Shown: positions 33,721 through 60,150 of the stretch, one piece after another
Position numbering within the stretch: position 1 is the stretch's first letter
How the letters are laid out: the number at the start of each line of letters is the position of its first letter
Assembly (NCBI GenBank): GCA_047602405.1
Contig: JASGHJ010000001.1
Span: 2,016,001-2,080,000 of the forward strand
DNA: 64,000 nt
Reading direction: 5' to 3'
Source of the DNA: Anaeromyxobacteraceae bacterium
GTDB lineage: Bacteria > Myxococcota > Myxococcia > Myxococcales > Anaeromyxobacteraceae
The notes under the pieces: model-generated
Databases searched by the model: none
What the model saw: the letters and a program-made list of their open reading frames with translations, nothing else
Told to the model about the DNA's origin: nothing
Position numbers and translations under genes: made by a program

Positions 33721-33754
33721 GGCCCCGGCCGGGCCCGGGTTAGTATCCCCGCCC

Positions 33755-35125
<1,371 letters not shown>

Positions 35126-35148
35126 GCTGGCCCGTTCGGGCCGGCTCC

Positions 35149-35480
35149 ATGGGCAAACGGTACCTTGGGGGCGAAACGCGCCTCCGCGACGGCGCTTGCT
35201 CGGACGGGTTTGAGACGGAAGAGATCGCCGGAACCGTGGCCGTTCCATGGCGGTGATCGTGGCAGCAGGCCTGCACGCGAGTTGCGCGTGACGACGCCGT
35301 GCGCTTCGCGCACGTCACCGTCACACGCCCTCGTCGCTTGGCCTGCATTGCCCCGATGTGGAGGCGGTACCTCGCCCGTCGCTCGCTGCGCGCCGCTGCG
35401 GAGACGCGTTTCGCCCTCGGGCGTGACGGACGGAGGTCGGCCGTGGATGCCGGGTGCTGGTGTTGAACTGATGGTGAGAT
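35149..35480 (+). repeat. Structured fold-back element, copy 1 (MITE/REPIN-like or ncRNA)
   Basis: Conserved blocks match the reverse complement of 35710-36039; 83-nt core 81/83 identical; internal ~25-bp inverted repeats. Confidence 0.85.
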
Positions 35481-35709
35481 CGGGGTGAGGGTGACGCTGA
35501 CGCTGACGGTGGTGATGATGAGCGTGAGACCGATCGCTCACGCTTTCCGGCGTTCGAGCATCAACTGTCGTAGAGCGACAGGATTACTGACCCCCTCACG
35601 ACACCAATTCTGACCCCCCCCACTCCCCTACCGCCTTTGACGCCCAACGCGTAACGCGTAACCCCTGACGCGTAACGCGTAACCCCCAACCCCCAGCGCC
35701 CCACCTTCT

Positions 35710-36039
35710 TCACCATCAGTTCATTACCAGCTACCCAGCAACATCGGCCGACCTCAGTCCGGTACGCCCGAGGGCAAAACGTGCCTCCGCAGCGACGGCC
35801 GGCGGAGGTCGGGCTCTCCACGTCTCCAGGATCCTAGCGATTGCAGGCCAAGCGACGAGGGCGTGTGACGGCGACGTGCGCGCAGCGCACGGCGTCGTCA
35901 CGCGCAACTCGCGTGCAGGCCTGCCGCGGCCTATGCGATCGCAGCTACCCCGGTTCCGGGCGTCTGCACCATACACAGACCGACGCAGCCGGCCGGCGTC
36001 GCGGAGGCGCGTTTTGCCCGCAAGGCACCGTCTGCCCAC
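35710..36039 (-). repeat. Structured fold-back element, copy 2
   Basis: Inverted homolog of 35149-35480. Confidence 0.85.
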
Positions 36040-36077
36040 ACGGGCGGGCCCCTGCCCAGAGGGGGAGGAGGGGAGGG

Positions 36078-36108
36078 GGCCCGCGGACGCAAGGAGCGTC
36101 CGCGGGCC
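36078..36108 (-). terminator. Hairpin directly after the pilY1 stop
   Basis: 13-bp perfect stem GGCCCGCGGACGC/GCGTCCGCGGGCC; no clear U-tract. Confidence 0.55.
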
Positions 36109-36115
36109 GTGGAGG

Positions 36116-39100
36116 CTACTCGCAGACGCTGGCCGAGGTGGCCACGTCGTGGCGGCAGGCGTGGGCCTGGCGCGGGATCTCCAGCCAGAAGGCGCCGGAG
36201 CCACCGAGCTTGCGGGTGCCCGCGCCGGTGGTGTTGGCCTGCGAGTTGTTGATGGCCTGGCTCGAGTAGGACACCGTCTTCTTGTTGGTGTTCACACCCA
36301 CGATCACCTGCGAGGCGTTGGGCGCCGCGGTGACGTTGGAGAGGGCCGCCACCGCGTCGATGCCGCCGGAGCAGGAGGTGGTCGGGGAGCCGGAGAGGTA
36401 GTCGGTGCCGTAGGCGTAGGCGACCGGCGTGCCGAGGGTGCCGGAGCACGGGTCCACCGTGGTGGTGGTGCCGACCGGGCGGAACGAGCTCCAGAACGTG
36501 CAGCCGAGGACGACGGTGGCGTTGGAGCCGGTCTTCTCGTCGACCCAGGGCGGCGTGTCGGTGCAGGCCGAGAGCGGGCAGACGTCGCCGTACTGGTAGT
36601 ACCAGCCCGGGCCGGTGGCCGAGGAGCGGCAGGAGGTGGCGGCGCCGCCGCCGAGGCAGGTGCCGTCCTTCTGCGCCTTCGTCACGTCGGTCAGGGCGCA
36701 CGGGCCGCCGGCGCAGGTGGTGGCGCCGCCGAAGGCGATGTCGGTGAAGCGGTGTTGGTCGAACGTCTTCGCCGCCGCGAGGGTGTCGAAGGTCTTCGTG
36801 GTCGCGGTGGTGGGGCCGGAGCCGTACGACCAGAAGCCGAAGAAGCGGGCGTGCGTCGGCCCCGTGAAGGCGACGTTCGACACGGTCCGCTCGCCGATGG
36901 GCGTGACGGTGCAGAGGCCGCTGCCGCTGCAGGAGGTCGTGCCGATGGCGTCGGGGAGCGCGCCGATGCCCGGGCAGTTGAGCTTCACGGTCTCCTTCGC
37001 GAGGTACGTGTCCGCGCCCGCCGAGCAGGTGGTCGCGGTGAGGCTGCCGCCGTGGGCGTAGGTGAGCACGCCGCCGTTGCAGACGAACTTGTCGGTGCGG
37101 TTGTAGCCGGTGGAGTAGCTGCGCTCGAGCTGCGACTCCGTGGTGCAGCCCGCCTTGCAGCAGCCGAGCAGGTCGTCGTTCTCGCAGTTCGCGGTCGTCG
37201 TCATGAGGCGCTCGCGGTTGCCGGAGCCGAGGTAGGTGCGCAGCGAGCGGGTCGAGGCGTCGTAGACGTTGCTCGTCATGTAGAAGAACTCGTTGCGGCC
37301 GGCGATCCGCTGCGCGTCGTCGGCCTGGCGGCGCTGCTCGAACGTGCGGCTCGCGAACCAGTTCGTGACCTTGCCGCTCGTGACGTCGAGCGTGCCGGGG
37401 CTCCAGAAGCGCGCCACCCAGACGTTGCCGCCGAGGTCGCCCCAGGTCGCGGTGTCGAAGAACCCGTCGTTGTCGATGGTGCGCTTCGACGAGTCGCCCA
37501 CGTCGAGGAGGGAGATGCCGGCGGGGACCGGGAACATGTGCCCGGGGCGGGCGTAGGTCGAGCCCCAGTCGTCGTCGGTGAAGCGCCAGATCGACTTGCC
37601 GGACCAGACGTCGACGAAGAAGACCGCGCGGCCCTGGTTGAGCGAGGGGTCGTAGCCGCCGTTGATCGCGACGATCCACTTCTCCGCGAAGCCGCGCAGG
37701 CTGTCGTTCGCGGTGGGGGTGGTCTCGACCACCCGCACCGGGCCGATGGGCGGCGGCTTCGGCGCGAAGTCGGACCAGGTCTGCCCGATGAGGTCGGCGT
37801 CCTCGGCGCAGCCCTCGGGGTAGTTCCACAGGAGGGCCGGGCGGCCCTTCGTGGTCGCGGTGGCGGAGCCGGAGCCCTGGGGCTTGCCCGGGGCGGTCAC
37901 GTCGAGCGCGGTGTACTGGTTCCCGCCCGTGCGGCGGCCGAACACGATGATGGTGTGGAACTCGTGCGCCTGCTTCACGCCGTCGCGGTCGGTGGTGACG
38001 GAGAGGTCGGTGGTGGCGCCGTCCTGCTGGACGCTCCCGTCCACCCAGACGTCCTGGGCCATGACCGAGGCGTCCACGAGGTACTGGTGGCCGTCGAGCA
38101 GGTTCTTGAGGCGCGGCAGGACGTCGATGGGGATGAAGCCCCAGATCTCCTCGCCGGTGCCGGGGTTGTACTGGTCGGTGGAGAGCTCCGCGGAGGTCGA
38201 CAGGTAGGTGCCGGCGTCGAACGCGTGCAGGATGCCGTCGTTGCCGCCGACGAAGAGCACGCGGTTGCGGTTGAGCGCCGCGGCGCGGAACACGTTGTAG
38301 GTGTCGAGGGTGACCGTGCCCGAGGTGGGCATCGGCGTCATCTTCGGGAACAGCGGGGTCGAGAAGAGCGTGGGCTTGCACTGCTTCTCGAGGCCCGTCG
38401 CGCACAGGAACTCGTGGACCGGCGCCGCGACCACGGCCGGGGAGCTGTGGGCGATGTCGCCGAGCTTCCAGAAGAGCGGGGTGGTCCGCCCGTCCTGGGC
38501 GCGGTCGCGCTCCTCGCCCTTCGTCCCGCGCTGGCAGCCGGCGGCGTTGGTCTTGCCCGGGCCGGCGCAGCCGTCGCCGTCCTGGTCGAGGACGTCCCAG
38601 CCGCGCACGAAGTAGATGACCTCCCGGGCGCACTCCTGGAGCGGCGCCGCGCTCACGATGCCGAGGCGCGCGAGCAGGGTCGTGCACCAGGGCCCGTCCA
38701 TGTTCAGGTACGGCAGGAGCGTCGCCGCGTTCGCCGCGGTGAACTCGACGCGGTTGCCCGCGACCCAGGTGAACAGGGTGCGGGCGTTCGTCGCGGTCTC
38801 GTCTGCCGAGCGGTAGCCGGTCTTGGTCGAGTCGGAGAGGACGCGGCCGGCGTCCCAGGGCAGGTTCGCGGCGGTGGTCGTGCCGGCCTTGAGGAAGTCG
38901 CCGGTGGCGGCGTCCTCGGCGATGCGGTTGCAGTCCTTGTCGACGAGGAACGTGCTCGTGCACTTGTCGTCGCCGTCGAGGTCGGAGGAGACGACGTGCC
39001 CCTGGCAGGTGACGTCGGGGGCCGCGCCGCCCTCCTTGCAGCCGTTCAGCTTCTCGTCGAACACGAAGGCCTCGAACACGTGGCCCTCCCACGGGAAGGA

Positions 39101-41107
39101 CTCGTTCGGCTTGAAGCGGGTGACGAAGGCCTCGGAGGTCGTGTACTGCGTCGTCTGCAGGGAGTTCGCGCTCGCGACCGAGAACGAGTTCAGCTTCGGG
39201 ATCACCGAGCGGACCGCGTTGTAGACGGCGTTCGAGAGCTCGTCCTCGCTGCCGGCCACCGCGAAGGTGCCGCCGCCCATGTTGGCGGTCGCGTGGAGGA
39301 TGTTGTACGCGCGCGGGTCGAGCTGGCTCATCGTGTTGAAGCCGATGGTGTGGATCGTGAGCGCCTGCTTCGAGCCGGTGGAGAAGTCGGTGCGCAGCTG
39401 GGTGTTGTGCAGCCAGGAGGCGATGCGCGGGAGCGGGCTCAGCTTCGTCGTCTCCGACGGCGAGTAGCAGCTGCAGCTGGCGATCGTGCTGCAGGCCGCG
39501 CCCGCGGCCGTGCACGCGGCGCACGGGCAGGTCGTGCAGGCGCTCGTGTCGGTGGCCGGGTCGGCCGCGGCGTAGCACGCCGCGCAGCTCGCGCGACCGC
39601 AGTTGGTGGTCAGGTTGTAGGTGGTGGAGTCCCAGTTCGTGACGGCCGTGGGGAACGTGATCTCGCTGTTCGGCGAGCCGTCGGTGACCGCGATGATCGT
39701 GCTGTTCTGGCAGGCCCAGCAGAACGAGCACTGGACGTTGCCGGGCTTCGTCACCCAGGCGGCGTTCACCTTCCCGGCGCTCTTCTCGTTGAAGGCGGCG
39801 AGCTCGTAGGTGGCGCCGAACTTGTTCTTGTAGAGATCCTTCGAGGTGAAGTACTGGCCGACGTTGAAGACGGCGCTGCCGAGCGGCGTGCTCCCCGAGG
39901 CCGGGTTGAAGAAGCCGCCGGTGATGGTGGTGCCGTCGACGACGGTGTTGAGGGCAATGTCCTTGTAGTGGGTCTGGTCGTAGTTCAGCGTCGAGAGGAT
40001 GTACTGCCGCGACTGCCGGAAGCCGTCGAAGGTGGGCGGGTAGGACGAGGCCTTGTCCGGGCCGAGCGGGACGATGAGCTGGGCGCGCTGGTTGCCGCCC
40101 GCGCCGGAGTCGAGGATCGCGAGGCCGAGGCGGACCTGGTCGAGCTGCAGCTGCTCGCCCGTGTCGGCGCGGTCCATCCAGGCGAGGTTTTTCACCACCG
40201 TCTTCGCCGACATGAACTTCGGCGGGTTCGCGTTCAGGAAGGTGCCCTTGAAGAGCGGCACGCCGGTCGCGCTGGAGAAGCCGCCGGGCGACCACTTCGA
40301 GGTCCCCGCGTTGTACGTGCAGGTCCCCTCCGCGGCCCACTTGATCCGGTAGAAGTAGAACCCGCGGGTCGACATGCAGGTCGAGCACGCGGCGCCGAGG
40401 TCGATGGGGTTGCCGGCGCAGTCCTTGATGACGTTGCCGCTGCCGTCGACCGCGGTGCAGGTCTTCGCGAGCGTGGCGGCGGTCGCGTCGGACGCCGGGT
40501 CGTCGTGCTGGAAGCGGGTCGCCTTGAAGCTCGCGGCGGTGCTGCCCACCGTCCAGCTCGCGTAGCGGTAGACGGCCTTCGGGTCGAACATGCACCTGTC
40601 GCCCGTGCACTTCGTCGCGCAGGCGGCCCCGCCGTTGCCCCACGGCGGGCAATCCCAGAGGAGGTCGTTCGTCCGGCCCGGGTCGGCGTAGGTCGTCTTG
40701 GGCGTGACGTTCTCCATCCACTTCAGCTGCGGCCCGGTGCCGTCGGTCGCGGGCGTGCACGTGCCCTTGATCGACACGAACAGCGGGGAGACCTGGGCGG
40801 TCGTCGACGGGTTGACCGGCGAGGTGAGCGAGGGCGACTTGCAGGTGCCGGGCGCGCTGCCGTCGTTCCAGCTGTAGTCGCCGCACTGGGTGAAGTCGTA
40901 CATCGACCCCGAGGTGTCGAGCGTCAGCATGACCGACGCCGGGCCCGACGGCAGCTTGAAGAAGGCCTCGTCGCCCACGACCGGCGCGGTGAGCTGGGAG
41001 GCGAGCGAGGTGGTGTTCACGCAGCAGGTGGTCGTCGCGCCGTCGCCCGCGAGGGGCAGGAGGGCGAGGAGGGCCGCGAGGGGCAGGATGGCGCTGAGCT
41101 TCTTCAC
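36116..41107 (-). CDS. pilY1: PilY1 tip adhesin, Cys-rich, vWA-like plus beta-propeller
   Basis: Signal peptide; LDTSGSM/TPL/VTDG MIDAS; KLGDIAHSSP, GGNDGILHAF, GEEIWGFIP; last gene of the minor pilin operon. Confidence 0.9.
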   Translation of the reverse strand: MKKLSAILPLAALLALLPLAGDGATTTCCVNTTSLASQLTAPVVGDEAFFKLPSGPASVMLTLDTSGSMYDFTQCGDYSWNDGSAPGTCKSPSLTSPVNPSTTAQVSPLFVSIKGTCTPATDGTGPQLKWMENVTPKTTYADPGRTNDLLWDCPPWGNGGAACATKCTGDRCMFDPKAVYRYASWTVGSTAASFKATRFQHDDPASDATAATLAKTCTAVDGSGNVIKDCAGNPIDLGAACSTCMSTRGFYFYRIKWAAEGTCTYNAGTSKWSPGGFSSATGVPLFKGTFLNANPPKFMSAKTVVKNLAWMDRADTGEQLQLDQVRLGLAILDSGAGGNQRAQLIVPLGPDKASSYPPTFDGFRQSRQYILSTLNYDQTHYKDIALNTVVDGTTITGGFFNPASGSTPLGSAVFNVGQYFTSKDLYKNKFGATYELAAFNEKSAGKVNAAWVTKPGNVQCSFCWACQNSTIIAVTDGSPNSEITFPTAVTNWDSTTYNLTTNCGRASCAACYAAADPATDTSACTTCPCAACTAAGAACSTIASCSCYSPSETTKLSPLPRIASWLHNTQLRTDFSTGSKQALTIHTIGFNTMSQLDPRAYNILHATANMGGGTFAVAGSEDELSNAVYNAVRSVIPKLNSFSVASANSLQTTQYTTSEAFVTRFKPNESFPWEGHVFEAFVFDEKLNGCKEGGAAPDVTCQGHVVSSDLDGDDKCTSTFLVDKDCNRIAEDAATGDFLKAGTTTAANLPWDAGRVLSDSTKTGYRSADETATNARTLFTWVAGNRVEFTAANAATLLPYLNMDGPWCTTLLARLGIVSAAPLQECAREVIYFVRGWDVLDQDGDGCAGPGKTNAAGCQRGTKGEERDRAQDGRTTPLFWKLGDIAHSSPAVVAAPVHEFLCATGLEKQCKPTLFSTPLFPKMTPMPTSGTVTLDTYNVFRAAALNRNRVLFVGGNDGILHAFDAGTYLSTSAELSTDQYNPGTGEEIWGFIPIDVLPRLKNLLDGHQYLVDASVMAQDVWVDGSVQQDGATTDLSVTTDRDGVKQAHEFHTIIVFGRRTGGNQYTALDVTAPGKPQGSGSATATTKGRPALLWNYPEGCAEDADLIGQTWSDFAPKPPPIGPVRVVETTPTANDSLRGFAEKWIVAINGGYDPSLNQGRAVFFVDVWSGKSIWRFTDDDWGSTYARPGHMFPVPAGISLLDVGDSSKRTIDNDGFFDTATWGDLGGNVWVARFWSPGTLDVTSGKVTNWFASRTFEQRRQADDAQRIAGRNEFFYMTSNVYDASTRSLRTYLGSGNRERLMTTTANCENDDLLGCCKAGCTTESQLERSYSTGYNRTDKFVCNGGVLTYAHGGSLTATTCSAGADTYLAKETVKLNCPGIGALPDAIGTTSCSGSGLCTVTPIGERTVSNVAFTGPTHARFFGFWSYGSGPTTATTKTFDTLAAAKTFDQHRFTDIAFGGATTCAGGPCALTDVTKAQKDGTCLGGGAATSCRSSATGPGWYYQYGDVCPLSACTDTPPWVDEKTGSNATVVLGCTFWSSFRPVGTTTTVDPCSGTLGTPVAYAYGTDYLSGSPTTSCSGGIDAVAALSNVTAAPNASQVIVGVNTNKKTVSYSSQAINNSQANTTGAGTRKLGGSGAFWLEIPRQAHACRHDVATSASVCE

Positions 41108-56279: not shown

Positions 56280-57121
56280 TGGAGCTCTTGCCCGCGCCGT
56301 TCCTCCTCGGCTGGGTCGCGCTCGTCGGCGCGATCTTCGGCTCGTTCCTGAACGTGGTGATCGCGCGGGTGCCGCTCGGCCAGTCGGTCGTGAGCCCGCG
56401 CTCGCGCTGCCCGCGCTGCGGCACGCCCATCGCCTGGTACGACAACCTGCCGGTGGTCTCGTGGGCGCTGCTCCGCGCGCGCTGCCGGTCGTGCCGGACG
56501 CCGATCTCGGTGCGCTACCCGCTCGTCGAGGCCGCGGGCGCGGCGGCCGCGGCCGGCGCGCTCCTGCGGCACGGGCCCACCGGCGCGGCGGCCTGCGAGC
56601 TCGCCCTCGTCCTCGTCCTGCTCGCGCTCGCGCTCATCGACCTCGACACCTGGCTCCTTCCGTACCCGCTGACCCTCCCGCTCATCGGCGCCGGCCTCGC
56701 CGCCTCGTGGGCGGGGCTCTCGCCCGCCGGCGGGTGGCGCCCCGCGCTGCTCGGCGCGGCCATCGGGTTCGGCGCCTTCGCGGCGGTCTCGTGGCTCGGG
56801 GCGAAGCTCGCGCGCAAGGAGGCCCTCGGCTTCGGCGACGTGTGGCTGCTCTCCGGGCTCGGCGCGTGGTTCGGGGCGCTCGCGCTCCTGCCCATCGTGA
56901 TGCTCGCGTCGATCCAGGGCTCGGGGGTCGGGATTGCGCTGATCCTCCTCGGGAGGGCGCAGAAGGGGGAGGAGGGCGGCGGGGAGGCGCAGCCCGACGG
57001 CTGGGTCCCGCCGCGGAACTCCGTGCCCTTCGGGCCGTTCCTCGTGCTCGGGGCGCTCGAGTGGCTCTACGCGGCCGACCTCCTCGCCTCCTGGGTGCCG
57101 GCCCTCGGGCTGTTCCGGTAG
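56279..57121 (+). CDS. pilD: Prepilin peptidase/N-methyltransferase
   Basis: GSFLNVVIAR, CPRC/CRSC, IDLD, GFGD, PFGPFL. Confidence 0.95.
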   Translation: MELLPAPFLLGWVALVGAIFGSFLNVVIARVPLGQSVVSPRSRCPRCGTPIAWYDNLPVVSWALLRARCRSCRTPISVRYPLVEAAGAAAAAGALLRHGPTGAAACELALVLVLLALALIDLDTWLLPYPLTLPLIGAGLAASWAGLSPAGGWRPALLGAAIGFGAFAAVSWLGAKLARKEALGFGDVWLLSGLGAWFGALALLPIVMLASIQGSGVGIALILLGRAQKGEEGGGEAQPDGWVPPRNSVPFGPFLVLGALEWLYAADLLASWVPALGLFR

Positions 57122-57133
57122 GCTCGGTCCATG

Positions 57134-59064
57134 GTGCGTCGTGGAAGCTGCACCGATCCAGCCGGTGAGAGTCCGGTCCGGGTAATCGCCGGAGAGCCCG
57201 GAAGCAGGCACCAGCTTGTCCGGGAGACCGGGCATGCCGAGCGGTGCGTCGAAAGCCTCACGTACGGAGGAAGCGAAGCGGCGGGCCGCAACAAGGTGAA
57301 CGCTTCAGCCTCGACAGATCCTCAGCCGAAAGGTGTTCGGGAGCGCCGAGCCGGTCATGCCACGGCGAAGGCGATGCACAGCGTCCTTGGTCCGGAACGG
57401 ACGCTGGGGCTCCCCGGGGTAGGGGCGGCGGCACGTCGCGAAGGATCGGTGTGGAACACGAGAGACCCTCGCCGGCAGCCCGCGTCGGGCAGAGACCGAG
57501 CGCATAAGACGGGAGTCGAAAGCGCGAGGAGCCGGAAGGGAGTCCGAGGGGCCCGTAGTACCGGTGAGGCGCGGGATAACCGCGCGGAGGGAAGGGGCCC
57601 TGCTTTGGTCGCGTCGGCACTGGGGGTAAGCGCGAGGGCATGGCCGTGAGGCCCAACACCCCCATCGACAAAGTGCGAGAACTCCAGCGCCGGCTTTACG
57701 TGGCCGCCAAGCGGAGCAGCACGCGGCGCTTTCACGCATTGTACGACCGGATCTGCAGGGGTGACGTCCTGCGGGAAGCGTGGAAGCGGGTGCGCAGCAA
57801 CGGAGGCGCGGCAGGGGTGGACGGCGAGTCCATCCGGGCCATCGAGGAGAGCGGAGTCGAGGCGTTCCTCGAAGGGATCCAGGCCGATCTCCTGGCAGGC
57901 GAATACCGCCCCCTCCCGGTGAGGCGGCGGTACATCCCGAAGGCAGACGGAAAGCAGCGGCCGCTCGGGATCCCGACGGTGCGGGATCGCGTGGCGCAGA
58001 TGGCTGCGAAGTTGGTGCTCGAGCCGATCTTCGAGGCCGACTTCCTGTCGTCGAGCTACGGGTTCCGGCCGAAGCGGAGCGCGACGCAGGCGCTGGAGGC
58101 CATCCGCGAGGCTGGCAACCAGGGTCACAACTTCGTGCTCGACGCCGACATCAAGGCGTACTTCGACAGCATCGACCAGCAGAAGCTGATGGCGATGGTG
58201 GCGGAGCGGATCTCGGACCGCAGGGTGCTGAAGCTCCTGCGGAAGTGGCTGGAGGCCGGGGTGATGGAGGAGGGCACGGTGAGAAACCCCGTGGCGGGAA
58301 CGCCACAGGGTGGAGTGATCTCGCCGCTGCTCGCCAACGTCTACCTGCACGAGCTCGACCGGATCTGGGCGCAGAGGTGCAAGCACCTCGGCGTCCTGGT
58401 GCGGTACGCCGACGACTTCGTCGTGATGTGTGGGACGGAGTCGAAGGTGAACGAGGCGAGGCGGCGCGTCGAGCTCATCATGGCGCGCCTCGGCCTGACG
58501 CTGCACCCGGAGAAGACGCGGATCGTCGATCTGAGGCGAGGAAAGGAAGGCTTCACCTTCCTCGGGTGCGTGAACCGGAAGCGGCGCAGCATCCAGCGGC
58601 GCCCCGACCGGCACTACATGCACCGCTGGCCCTCACCGAAGGCGATGACCCGCGTCCGCGAGCGCGTCCACGAGCTGACGGACGTGCGCAGGAGCGGGGC
58701 GAAGGACGTGAAGGAGGTCATCGCGTCCGTGAACCCCGTCATCCGGGGCTGGGCCAACTACTTCCGGACCGGAACAGCGGATCGGGAGTTCAACCGCGTC
58801 GACTGGTACGTGCACGAACGGATCACGCGCTGGCTCCATCGGCGCGGTGGTCAGCGGACTCGCTATCAGTACGAGGCTTGGCCCTTCGAACGTCTCTTCG
58901 AGCTTGGCCTGCACCGCTGCATGGGCCGCGTCCGCTACCCCGCGCAAGCTGCCGCGCGAAGACCATCGTTAAGCCGTGTGCGGGAAACCCGCACGCACGG
59001 TTTGAAAGGAGGCCCTGGAACCAGGCTGGCCTAACGGCCGGTACTGCGCCAGGATCGACCAATG
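57134..59064 (+). mobile_element. Group II intron inserted directly after the ATG of the pilS2-like kinase
   Basis: 5' GTGCG at 57134; domain V AAGCCGTGTGCGGGAAACCCGCACGCACGGTTT (58971-59003); domain VI with bulged A59058; removal restores ATG CGC GCG. Confidence 0.9.
57640..59034 (+). CDS. ltrA: Group II intron reverse transcriptase/maturase, no endonuclease domain
   Basis: [35 protein letters not shown], domain X IRGWANYF. Confidence 0.96.
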
Positions 59065-60150
59065 CGCGCGGGCCGCGTCCGCCTCCTCATCCTGCTCGAC
59101 CTCGCCGCCGTGGCGCTCCTCGTGGGCGGGCTGGCGTTCGTCGTCCTGACGATCGGCACGCGCGACCTCGGCCGGGCGGCCCTCGCCGCGGCGGCCATCG
59201 CCGGCCTCGGGCTCCTCGTCTCGGCGAGCCTGCTCCAGGGCGCCGTCGTGCGGCCCCTCGAGCGGATGCTGGCGGCCGCCGAGCGGCTCGACGGGGCGCG
59301 GGCCGCCGCGGACCTGCCGGTGCTGGCGCCCGAGGGGGAGGGTGGCCTCTCGCTCACGCGCGCCGCGGTCGCCTTCGAGCGCACGAGCGACGCGCTCGCC
59401 GCCGAGCGGGCCCGCCTCGCCGCGAAGGTGGAGGAGCTCGAGGCGGCGCGGGAGTCGCTGGTGCGCACCGAGAAGCTCGCCACGGTCGGCCGGCTCGCCG
59501 CCGGCGTCGCCCACGAGATCGGCAACCCGCTCGGCGCCATCGCCGGCTACGCGGAGATCGCCCGCGGCCGGGTCGAGCGCGGGCAGGCGGCCGAGGCCGT
59601 CGACTTCCTCGACCGCATCCGGGCCGACGTGCGCCGCATCGACGCCATCGTGCGCGACCTCCTCGACTTCGCCCGGCCCGCGGAGCCCGCGCTCGGCCCG
59701 GTCGGGCTCGGCGGCGCGGTGGAGGCCGCGGTGCGCCTCGCCCGGCCGCAGCCGCGCTTCCGCGACGTCGAGGTGACGGTGCGGGTGCCCCCGGGCCTGC
59801 CGCCGGTCGTCGCCGACGCGCGCCGGCTCGAGGGCGTCGTGCTCAACCTGCTCCTCAACGCGGCCGACGCGATGGGCGGGCGGGGCCCGCTCGAGCTCGC
59901 CGCGGCGGCGGAGGGCGGCGCGGTCGTGCTCGACGTGCTCGACCGGGGCACCGGGATCGCCCCGGAGAACCTGCCGCGCGTCTTCGACCCCTTCTTCACG
60001 ACGAAGCCGCCCGGCGCGGGGACCGGCCTCGGGCTCTCCATCTGCCTGAGGGTGGTCGAGTCCTTCGGCGGGACGCTCGAGGCGGCGAACCGCGAGGGCG
60101 GCGGGGCCCGCCTCCGGGTGCGCCTGCCGGCCGCGGCCGGGCCGGTGTAA
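59062..60150 (+). CDS. Sensor histidine kinase (PilS2-like)
   Basis: Two TMs, HAMP-like, AHEIGNPL, FFTTK, GTGLGL; between pilD and pilM. Confidence 0.88.
   Translation: MRAGRVRLLILLDLAAVALLVGGLAFVVLTIGTRDLGRAALAAAAIAGLGLLVSASLLQGAVVRPLERMLAAAERLDGARAAADLPVLAPEGEGGLSLTRAAVAFERTSDALAAERARLAAKVEELEAARESLVRTEKLATVGRLAAGVAHEIGNPLGAIAGYAEIARGRVERGQAAEAVDFLDRIRADVRRIDAIVRDLLDFARPAEPALGPVGLGGAVEAAVRLARPQPRFRDVEVTVRVPPGLPPVVADARRLEGVVLNLLLNAADAMGGRGPLELAAAAEGGAVVLDVLDRGTGIAPENLPRVFDPFFTTKPPGAGTGLGLSICLRVVESFGGTLEAANREGGGARLRVRLPAAAGPV

Follow-up and report, generated by a model that had tools for sequence, protein, structure and literature searches.

Inverted fold-back doublets between convergent genes of an Anaeromyxobacteraceae genome, a likely form of large non-autonomous mobile DNA

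Two genes that converge in the window, a stretch of 64,000 nucleotides from an Anaeromyxobacteraceae genome, are separated by an intergenic region in which one long fold-back sequence occurs twice, tail to tail (Table 1). The question is what such a pair represents. An earlier note on this locus had offered three options, namely an unannotated structured RNA, a REPIN/MITE-like non-autonomous element, or a recombination substrate at the edge of the pilY1 cassette.

The three inverted blocks lie where they had been placed, with 38/43 identical positions in the outer block (35149-35191 against 35997-36039), 81/83 in the core and 44/50 in the third block (35394-35443 against 35745-35794); one of the two differences in the core is in the loop and the other in the stem. 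The arm length of about 330 nt was nearly right, as a fourth conserved block (35456-35477 and 35710-35731) lengthens the arms to about 335 nt. The segments described as divergent spacers inside the arms do differ between the two copies but are not unique sequence, as they are the family-wide alleles X and Y. The gene name pilR is plausible because the upstream gene encodes a sigma54 response regulator adjoining pilC and a sensor kinase, and the PilY1 name is backed by a weak Pfam match (E 0.006). The fold of arm 1 is better than that of its shuffled versions (z -3.57 as DNA and as RNA, with 0/100 shuffles equal). An assembly fold-back artefact is ruled out by the 84 aligned positions at which the two arms differ and by the presence of 29 other arms in the genome.

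Table 1. Features of the locus, in window coordinates, and doublets of a second family (x) elsewhere in the genome (G000, contig C2).
Feature	Position	Strand	Remarks
Upstream gene, sigma54 response regulator (pilR-like)	33740..35125	+	context; stop 21 nt before arm 1
Arm 1, ~333 nt	35146..35478	+	outer shell type 2, middle shell X, core a, A-type tail
Arm 1 outer stem, 5' half	35166..35195	+	partner is 35390-35419; carries the invariant tandem G.T / A.C mismatch
Arm 1 middle shell, 5' half, allele X	35196..35264	+	short stem and side hairpin
Arm 1 core hairpin, allele a	35265..35347	+	closing stem GCAGGCC/GGCCTGC; swapped as a unit at one orthologous locus
3' halves of the arm 1 middle shell (X) and of its outer stem (35390-35419)	35348..35419	+	
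Arm 1 tail	35420..35478	+	CT at 35468-35469 is the IS1111 position in four other arms
Spacer, ~230 nt	35479..35709	.	short tandem oligomers; longest IS-free spacer in the family
Arm 2, ~331 nt	35710..36040	-	outer shell type 2 (private A-T pair), middle shell Y, core a, A-type tail
Arm 2 tail	35710-35771	-	
Arm 2 core, allele a	35842-35924	-	
Small hairpins separating arm 2 from the PilY1-like stop	36044..36108	.	like the genome's short palindromic repeats, by eye
Downstream convergent gene, PilY1-like	36116..41107	-	context; stop ~74 nt from arm 2
Family x doublet	C2:123721-124389		
Family x doublet	C2:278082-279630		
Family x doublet	C2:1207784-1208451		
Family x doublet	C2:2325422-2326081		
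Family x doublet	C2:2589504-2590131		
Family x doublet	C2:3114715-3115340		
Family x doublet	C2:3323059-3323726		
Family x single arms (seven)			L254 is one of them

Copy number and placement of the doublets

The pair in the window is one of many. BLAST and profile searches of the genome recovered 31 arms, which form 15 tail-to-tail doublets and one single arm, and the profile search of the whole genome matched nothing else apart from two 5' duplications. All 31 arms are intergenic, and all 15 doublets lie between convergent genes, compared with 823 of 5024 predicted gene junctions (16%), where the gene calls come from the author's own codon model. The intergenic short palindromic repeats of the same genome are convergent in 77 of 160 cases (48%), so the convergent bias is stronger for the doublets. 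The sense orientation after the upstream gene, first noted for the two window copies, holds for 31/31 arms, with a median start 30 nt past the stop codon; it is an automatic consequence of the doublet geometry.

The two arms of a doublet are usually unlike. Exactly one type-1 arm is found in 14/15 doublets (p 0.002, by shuffling), and the window copy is the sole exception. The spacers measure 30-233 nt after removal of IS sequence, one doublet is fused, and three doublets have spacer sequence in common. The 5' ends of the arms are ragged, and in 4/31 arms, as also in a second genome of the genus (G010), the first 20-40 nt are tandemly duplicated. The tetranucleotide GTAG precedes 2/31 arms; a YGTC-like start is commoner but has no short stem after it. 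Hidden protein coding was not detected, as the variation has no 3-periodicity and stops and indels differ among the copies.

The spacer of the window copy has no further match in the genome and contains neither a promoter nor a gene; a spacer motif matches about 25 nt of a site preceding an IS66-like element, a likeness treated as chance. A promoter and terminator scan of the region found no sigma70 site and no intrinsic terminator, and a sigma54-like spacing occurs, by eye, only in a few arms with one variant.

Some 180 short CGTC-like palindromic repeats also occur in the genome (e.g. C1:1957050, C2:3293991 and C2:3366232). They adjoin 5/31 arms at the 5' end and seem to serve as insertion sites for a second IS110-family element, present in 4 copies. 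In the arms at C1:2244292 (-) and C2:518919 (+), a piece resembling the short repeat, identical in both, takes the place of the side hairpin in the Y shell.

Fold, shells and strand of the arms

The structural alignment comprises 30 arms, 27 of the 29 full arms of the genome and three from G010, with two arms that have an inserted segment and two truncated arms set aside. In this alignment 97.6% of the cells are paired, compared with 33-49% in slid controls, and 19/70 pairs have changes on both sides. None of 500 shuffles reaches the observed paired fraction or the covariation score, while 7/500 reach the pair count. The covariation that had been proposed from the two window copies is therefore real over more copies and stands above shuffled and slid controls, with the reservation that the copies are related. 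The change originally seen between the outer blocks is a G-C to A-T replacement at alignment columns 30/277, and this variant is private to arm 2 among the 30 arms.

The variation is organised in four nested shells, each of which has between two and four alleles. For the four shells, the 5' half agrees with its 3' half in 30/30, 30/30, 30/30 and 28/30 arms, respectively. At the same time, 5/6 shell pairs fail the four-gamete test, all four allele combinations being present. Linkage correlates negatively with distance in the folded arm (rho -0.27) and positively with linear distance (rho +0.24), in statistics whose column pairs and copies are not independent; in a sister family of the same genome the contrast between folded and linear distance is weak (rho -0.13 vs -0.08).

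A clean swap of the core is seen in one G010 arm, in which the 3' middle shell has no differences from its orthologue and the core has 32. The exchange ends at the closing stem on either side, and the new core differs from that of the partner arm at a single position. In the window, the cores are 81/83 identical although the middle shells beside them differ entirely, which probably reflects an event of this kind; core a is, however, also widespread in the family. As linear conversion tracts would mostly leave discordant halves, these patterns imply either an exchange in the folded or extruded state or selection against discordant arms. Either could give the concordance of the shells, and the two cannot be separated from sequence alone.

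Whether the folded form is DNA or RNA can be approached through the mismatches in the stems. The tandem G.T/A.C mismatch of the outer stem is invariant in 30/30 arms and reads alike on both strands. Counts of G.T vs A.C pairs are 86 vs 47 in the outer stem and 13 vs 48 in the inner core. Single-sequence RNA folds are better for the sense strand in 28/30 arms, this strand also being richer in G+T, while the energy of the consensus fold is better for the antisense strand (-108.6 vs -95.8). A search of Rfam 15 gave no match at the gathering score, with nothing beyond sub-threshold miRNA-like hairpin matches at the window locus, and none of eight other loci of the family matched at that score either. 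Because the stem mismatches favour neither strand and there is no Rfam, terminator or coding signal, folded DNA fits somewhat better than RNA. The structured RNA of the earlier note is thus weakened by mismatches without a consistent strand bias and by the missing Rfam match.

In its fullest form, the RNA explanation would make each arm a structured 3'-UTR RNA under selection, acting as a stabiliser, a terminator-like barrier or an antisense insulator, with shell concordance arising from RNA pairing. Strong covariation, the better sense-strand folds and the excess of G.U-type over A.C pairs in the outer stem speak for this, yet the inner core pairs better on the opposite strand and the consensus energy points the same way. 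The position of all arms in sense after a stop codon, which would be expected of a 3'-UTR, is already given by the doublet geometry, and the region has no terminator-like site. The distribution of the arms is also hard to reconcile with such a function, since they are absent from 35/36 other genomes of the genus and deleted or missing at 9/11 of the sites compared in G010. This explanation is therefore unlikely as the origin of the family, although an RNA role can also hold as a later exaptation beside mobile DNA.

Probable mobility of the doublets and its alternatives

The window doublet is best explained as one of a group of lineage-restricted inverted fold-back doublets of 450-900 bp that are likely non-autonomous mobile DNA of a giant REPIN/BIME-like type, likely folded as single-stranded DNA or as a cruciform, and likely moved in trans. 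This was the second option of the earlier note, and it is supported by multicopy, extragenic, heterodimeric inverted doublets that are present or absent at orthologous sites and are hit by an IS110-family element. Against it stand the length of the arms (about ten times that of a REP), the scarcity of GTAG, the absence of a flanked Y1 transposase and the better sense-strand RNA folds in 28/30 arms.

REPINs are described as inverted doublets with compensatory changes in PMC3116915. Together with PMC3733652 and PMC8266576, this source gives a picture of REPINs and BIMEs to which the window family is similar in many ways: both are extragenic, multicopy, lineage-restricted inverted doublets with a variable spacer and compensatory changes, and both have a bias towards heterodimers, conserved stem mismatches, a preference for the 3' ends of genes and use as a target by the IS110 family. 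By contrast, REPIN and BIME units are 20-40 bp long, while the window family has arms of about 335 nt with nested exchangeable shells, lacks GTAG at 29/31 arms, has no flanked RAYT, occupies only 16 loci and is strictly convergent. Because of its size, the missing GTAG tag and the missing cognate RAYT, the family is set here as a variant of REPIN/BIME and not as a member.

Other known repeats are less similar. The MITE-like hairpin repeats ERIC, RUP and Correia are non-coding, fold back, and are dispersed near gene ends. The window family shares these properties but is doubly inverted (each arm folds, and the two arms are inverted), has no short terminal inverted repeat in common with a transposon, and has no clear target duplication. 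For a MITE of the DDE type, terminal inverted repeats shared with an autonomous transposon were not found by profile search of the genome or, for the listed ends of other repeat families, by eye. The attC sites of integrons have R and L boxes, an unpaired central spacer and extrahelical bases, and stand in a direct-repeat cassette array. The arms resemble them in folding back past a stop codon and, in type 1, in an AAC/GTT pair in the outer stem; unlike attC, the outer stem (columns 23-52) runs on one diagonal without extrahelical bases or a central spacer, and the arms are two to three times too long and occur as dispersed inverted pairs instead of direct arrays.

The unit that is copied would be the doublet and not the single arm, as 14/15 doublets have one type-1 arm and three share spacer sequence. 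A host Y1/HUH transposase acting in trans and reading the invariant stem mismatches is a tentative first choice for the mover within the preferred explanation. The guess stems from these mismatches and the stuttered 5' ends, considered alongside PMC8266576, according to which E. coli TnpA-REP requires conserved stem mismatches. A RAYT or IS200/IS605 transposase with matching ends, which the earlier note had suggested looking for, did not turn up: none of 46 Y1/RAYT loci (six from the genome itself and 40 from family searches) is flanked by the element within about 1.5 kb on each side, although a cognate gene may lie far away or have been lost. The genome's Y1 genes comprise six Pfam matches and two found by similarity, and the profile search puts no arm near the latter two. 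Short likenesses of the tail to Y1 ends were judged to be chance on a rough estimate. At one Y1 locus (L002), 34-bp inverted repeats (837-870 and 1998-2031) enclose the transposase gene and a second small ORF in a TIRtron-like arrangement.

Exchange between arms may proceed by cutting or crossing over of an extruded hairpin at its stem, with the gap repaired from another arm, often the partner. Such a repair would replace both halves of a shell together. Unlike arms would persist because near-identical arms collapse by deletion, and convergent gaps may be where a palindrome of this size can be tolerated or is targeted.

The range of the family is narrow. It is present in 1/36 other genomes of the genus, namely G010, and a core covariance model, which scored 24 candidates in each of 151 genomes of the order, found it only in the genome itself and G010. 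A pattern scan of genome contigs gave five matches, of which three are chance and two are real arms (L049, L051) that may duplicate a genome already counted and are not taken as independent. None of 17 matches in metagenomes and none of seven in viral contigs is real, and the plasmid scan gave no match. As the exact patterns recover only 27/31 of the genome's own arms, diverged relatives would escape these scans.

The genes of G010 are 88-97% identical to those of the genome studied here, and 11/16 sites were compared. One site has a full doublet, one has a full arm next to an internally deleted arm, and three have collapsed to outer remnants; six have no recognisable arm, among them the site of the singleton, which is empty with cleanly abutting flanks. 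The pilR-pilY1 allele of G010 is collapsed and fused at the core start, with the Y arm next to pilR and the X arm next to pilY1, opposite to their arrangement in the window. Contigs from 3/4 DNA sequencing runs have the collapsed allele of this locus, and the full doublet is spanned in none. No clear target duplication is seen at six sites that are empty in G010, the best being a 4-bp repeat with one mismatch at the singleton. As neither a target duplication nor a sharp boundary is seen, gain in the genome studied and loss in G010 look the same at most sites.

By eye, the stop codons at element sites often differ between the two genomes. The last codons of the flanking genes often differ too between filled and empty sites (L035 vs L127, L027 vs L107 and L021 vs L111), as if arrival or departure of the element remodelled the gene ends. 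At one further site (L123, G010 C5:107882-108558) an unrelated small gene with a secreted-looking product stands where the genome studied has a doublet.

A SINE-like retro-copy, in which read-through transcripts that include an arm undergo reverse transcription in trans, for instance by the RT of a group II intron, before insertion past stop codons, would account for the ragged and duplicated 5' ends and for the simple-repeat spacers after the tails. The topology of retron msr-msd is loosely like that of the arm, and the genome has a possible enzyme in the form of eight copies of a group II intron RT. This origin is nevertheless quite improbable, as insertion of single arms does not predict that 15/16 loci should be doublets in which the arms are unlike and the spacers related. 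All eight PF00078 matches in the genome are copies of this one intron; none is a retron RT, none is beside an arm, and intron-like ends were not seen in the arms by eye. One copy of the intron, with an RT frame of 484 codons, lies in the window itself at about 57100-59100 (L055). Two copies that were viewed are a few bases past a stop codon and directly before the start of the next gene, and in one copy (L060) the RT is internally deleted.

The unlikeness of left and right arms could also mean that they are the two ends of a lost autonomous element or cargo cassette whose full form has a gene between the arms. Foreign-looking ORFs between arms of sister families (one of 224 aa and weakly TPR-like in family x, short ones in family y) would fit. 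The only large inserts in the window family are, however, IS1111 copies, and a full-length form was found neither in 37 genomes of the genus and 151 of the order nor in the genome, metagenome, viral and plasmid scans; this idea too has little probability. The last option of the earlier note, taken as a switch dedicated to the pilY1 cassette and working by inversion or recombination, is hardly credible, for in spite of the reversed X and Y arms in G010 the window spacer lacks a promoter or gene, 15 unrelated loci carry the element, and 27/28 other pilR loci of the genus, most of them with a short gap, are without it. The locus is ordinary with respect to pilus biology and tells nothing special about the pilus genes.

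The IS1111 element and further hairpin families

Four doublets contain a 1470-bp element of the IS110 family; these are all four copies in the genome, and all are at one site in the tail. Besides DEDD and Transposase_20 domains, the insert carries subterminal inverted repeats of 13 bp and a CT core, and beyond the gene it ends in a long non-coding stretch. A DEDD recombinase, such repeats, core and non-coding end are described for the IS1111 group in PMC11208160. The predicted guides, which are the segments flanking a hairpin in the non-coding end, match the sequence on either side of the tail site, and the genome has no perfect guide-matching site that is unoccupied. In arm 1 of the window the site is empty, and the bases 3' of the CT mismatch the predicted right guide. 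The element is absent from 27/31 arms and, in a search with this query, from G010. This shows that IS1111 is a parasite of the repeat and not its mover.

Relatives of the element were found in 6/400 other genomes. The left guide matches the left target in the genome's own copy and in 5/5 relatives with both ends readable, out of six found, and it changes along with the target across these five, as read by eye from the printed loops. The insert shares domains, repeats, core and predicted guides with the bridge-RNA elements of the IS1111 group (PMC11208160; ISPpu9 preprint, 10.1101/2025.01.17.633520), while its target is a giant repeat instead of a short REP. The IS1111 element and its relatives are natural examples of bridge-RNA guides retuned to lineage-specific repeats.

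Two targets of the relatives were tested, and both turned out to be multicopy inverted hairpin pairs (families y and z), so that tracing IS1111 targets is a workable route to new repeat families. Family y has 4-25 matches in 4/37 genomes of the genus (L167, L169-L192; G006, G011, G016, G019). It consists of nested hairpins of about 330 nt that are often paired in inverted orientation between convergent genes, and the spacer of some holds short ORFs of low GC content; one copy contains an IS1111 relative, and one weak match (E 0.008) is beside one Y1 locus. Family z has 13 and 8 matches in 2/5 genomes (L163, L193-L206; G097, G141), as inverted pairs of arms of about 190 nt just past stop codons, with tandem 5' duplications and an IS1111 relative in the tail. 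In a 520-nt test the z site folds with z -0.7, and the surroundings of the relatives L162 and L165 fold no better than shuffles.

A further family, x, emerged from self-comparison of the genome. It has 22 arms of 260-310 nt, its doublets measure 667 bp, and 13/14 loci are convergent; one copy contains the weakly TPR-like ORF between its arms. Like the window family, it forms tail-to-tail nested hairpin doublets between convergent genes, and the short motif GGATCCTGGAGACG is common to both by eye. Unlike the window family, it has no IS1111 inside, and profile search could not align the two. None of the four families aligns with any other.

A broader possibility, rather doubtful at present, is that the Anaeromyxobacteraceae carry undescribed giant folded-DNA cassettes with at least four unalignable arm-pair families of 190-340 nt, one-step exchange of whole shells in the folded state, capture of cargo genes between the arms, a mover other than RAYT, and IS1111 guides reprogrammed to each family. 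No description of such repeats in Anaeromyxobacter was found in the literature covered, which includes few subscription papers. The wider question is how REP-type repeats spread and homogenise. Unlike 30-bp REPs, these arms are long enough to have readable multi-base alleles in four nested shells, and folded and linear exchange can therefore be told apart from sequence and tested with reporters. The interest of the system lies in this shell-wise exchange and in a class of giant repeats that is tracked by IS1111. In one of the IS1111 relatives (L165, ~1020-1450, G162) the predicted bridge-RNA region has an extra 190-bp palindromic insert.
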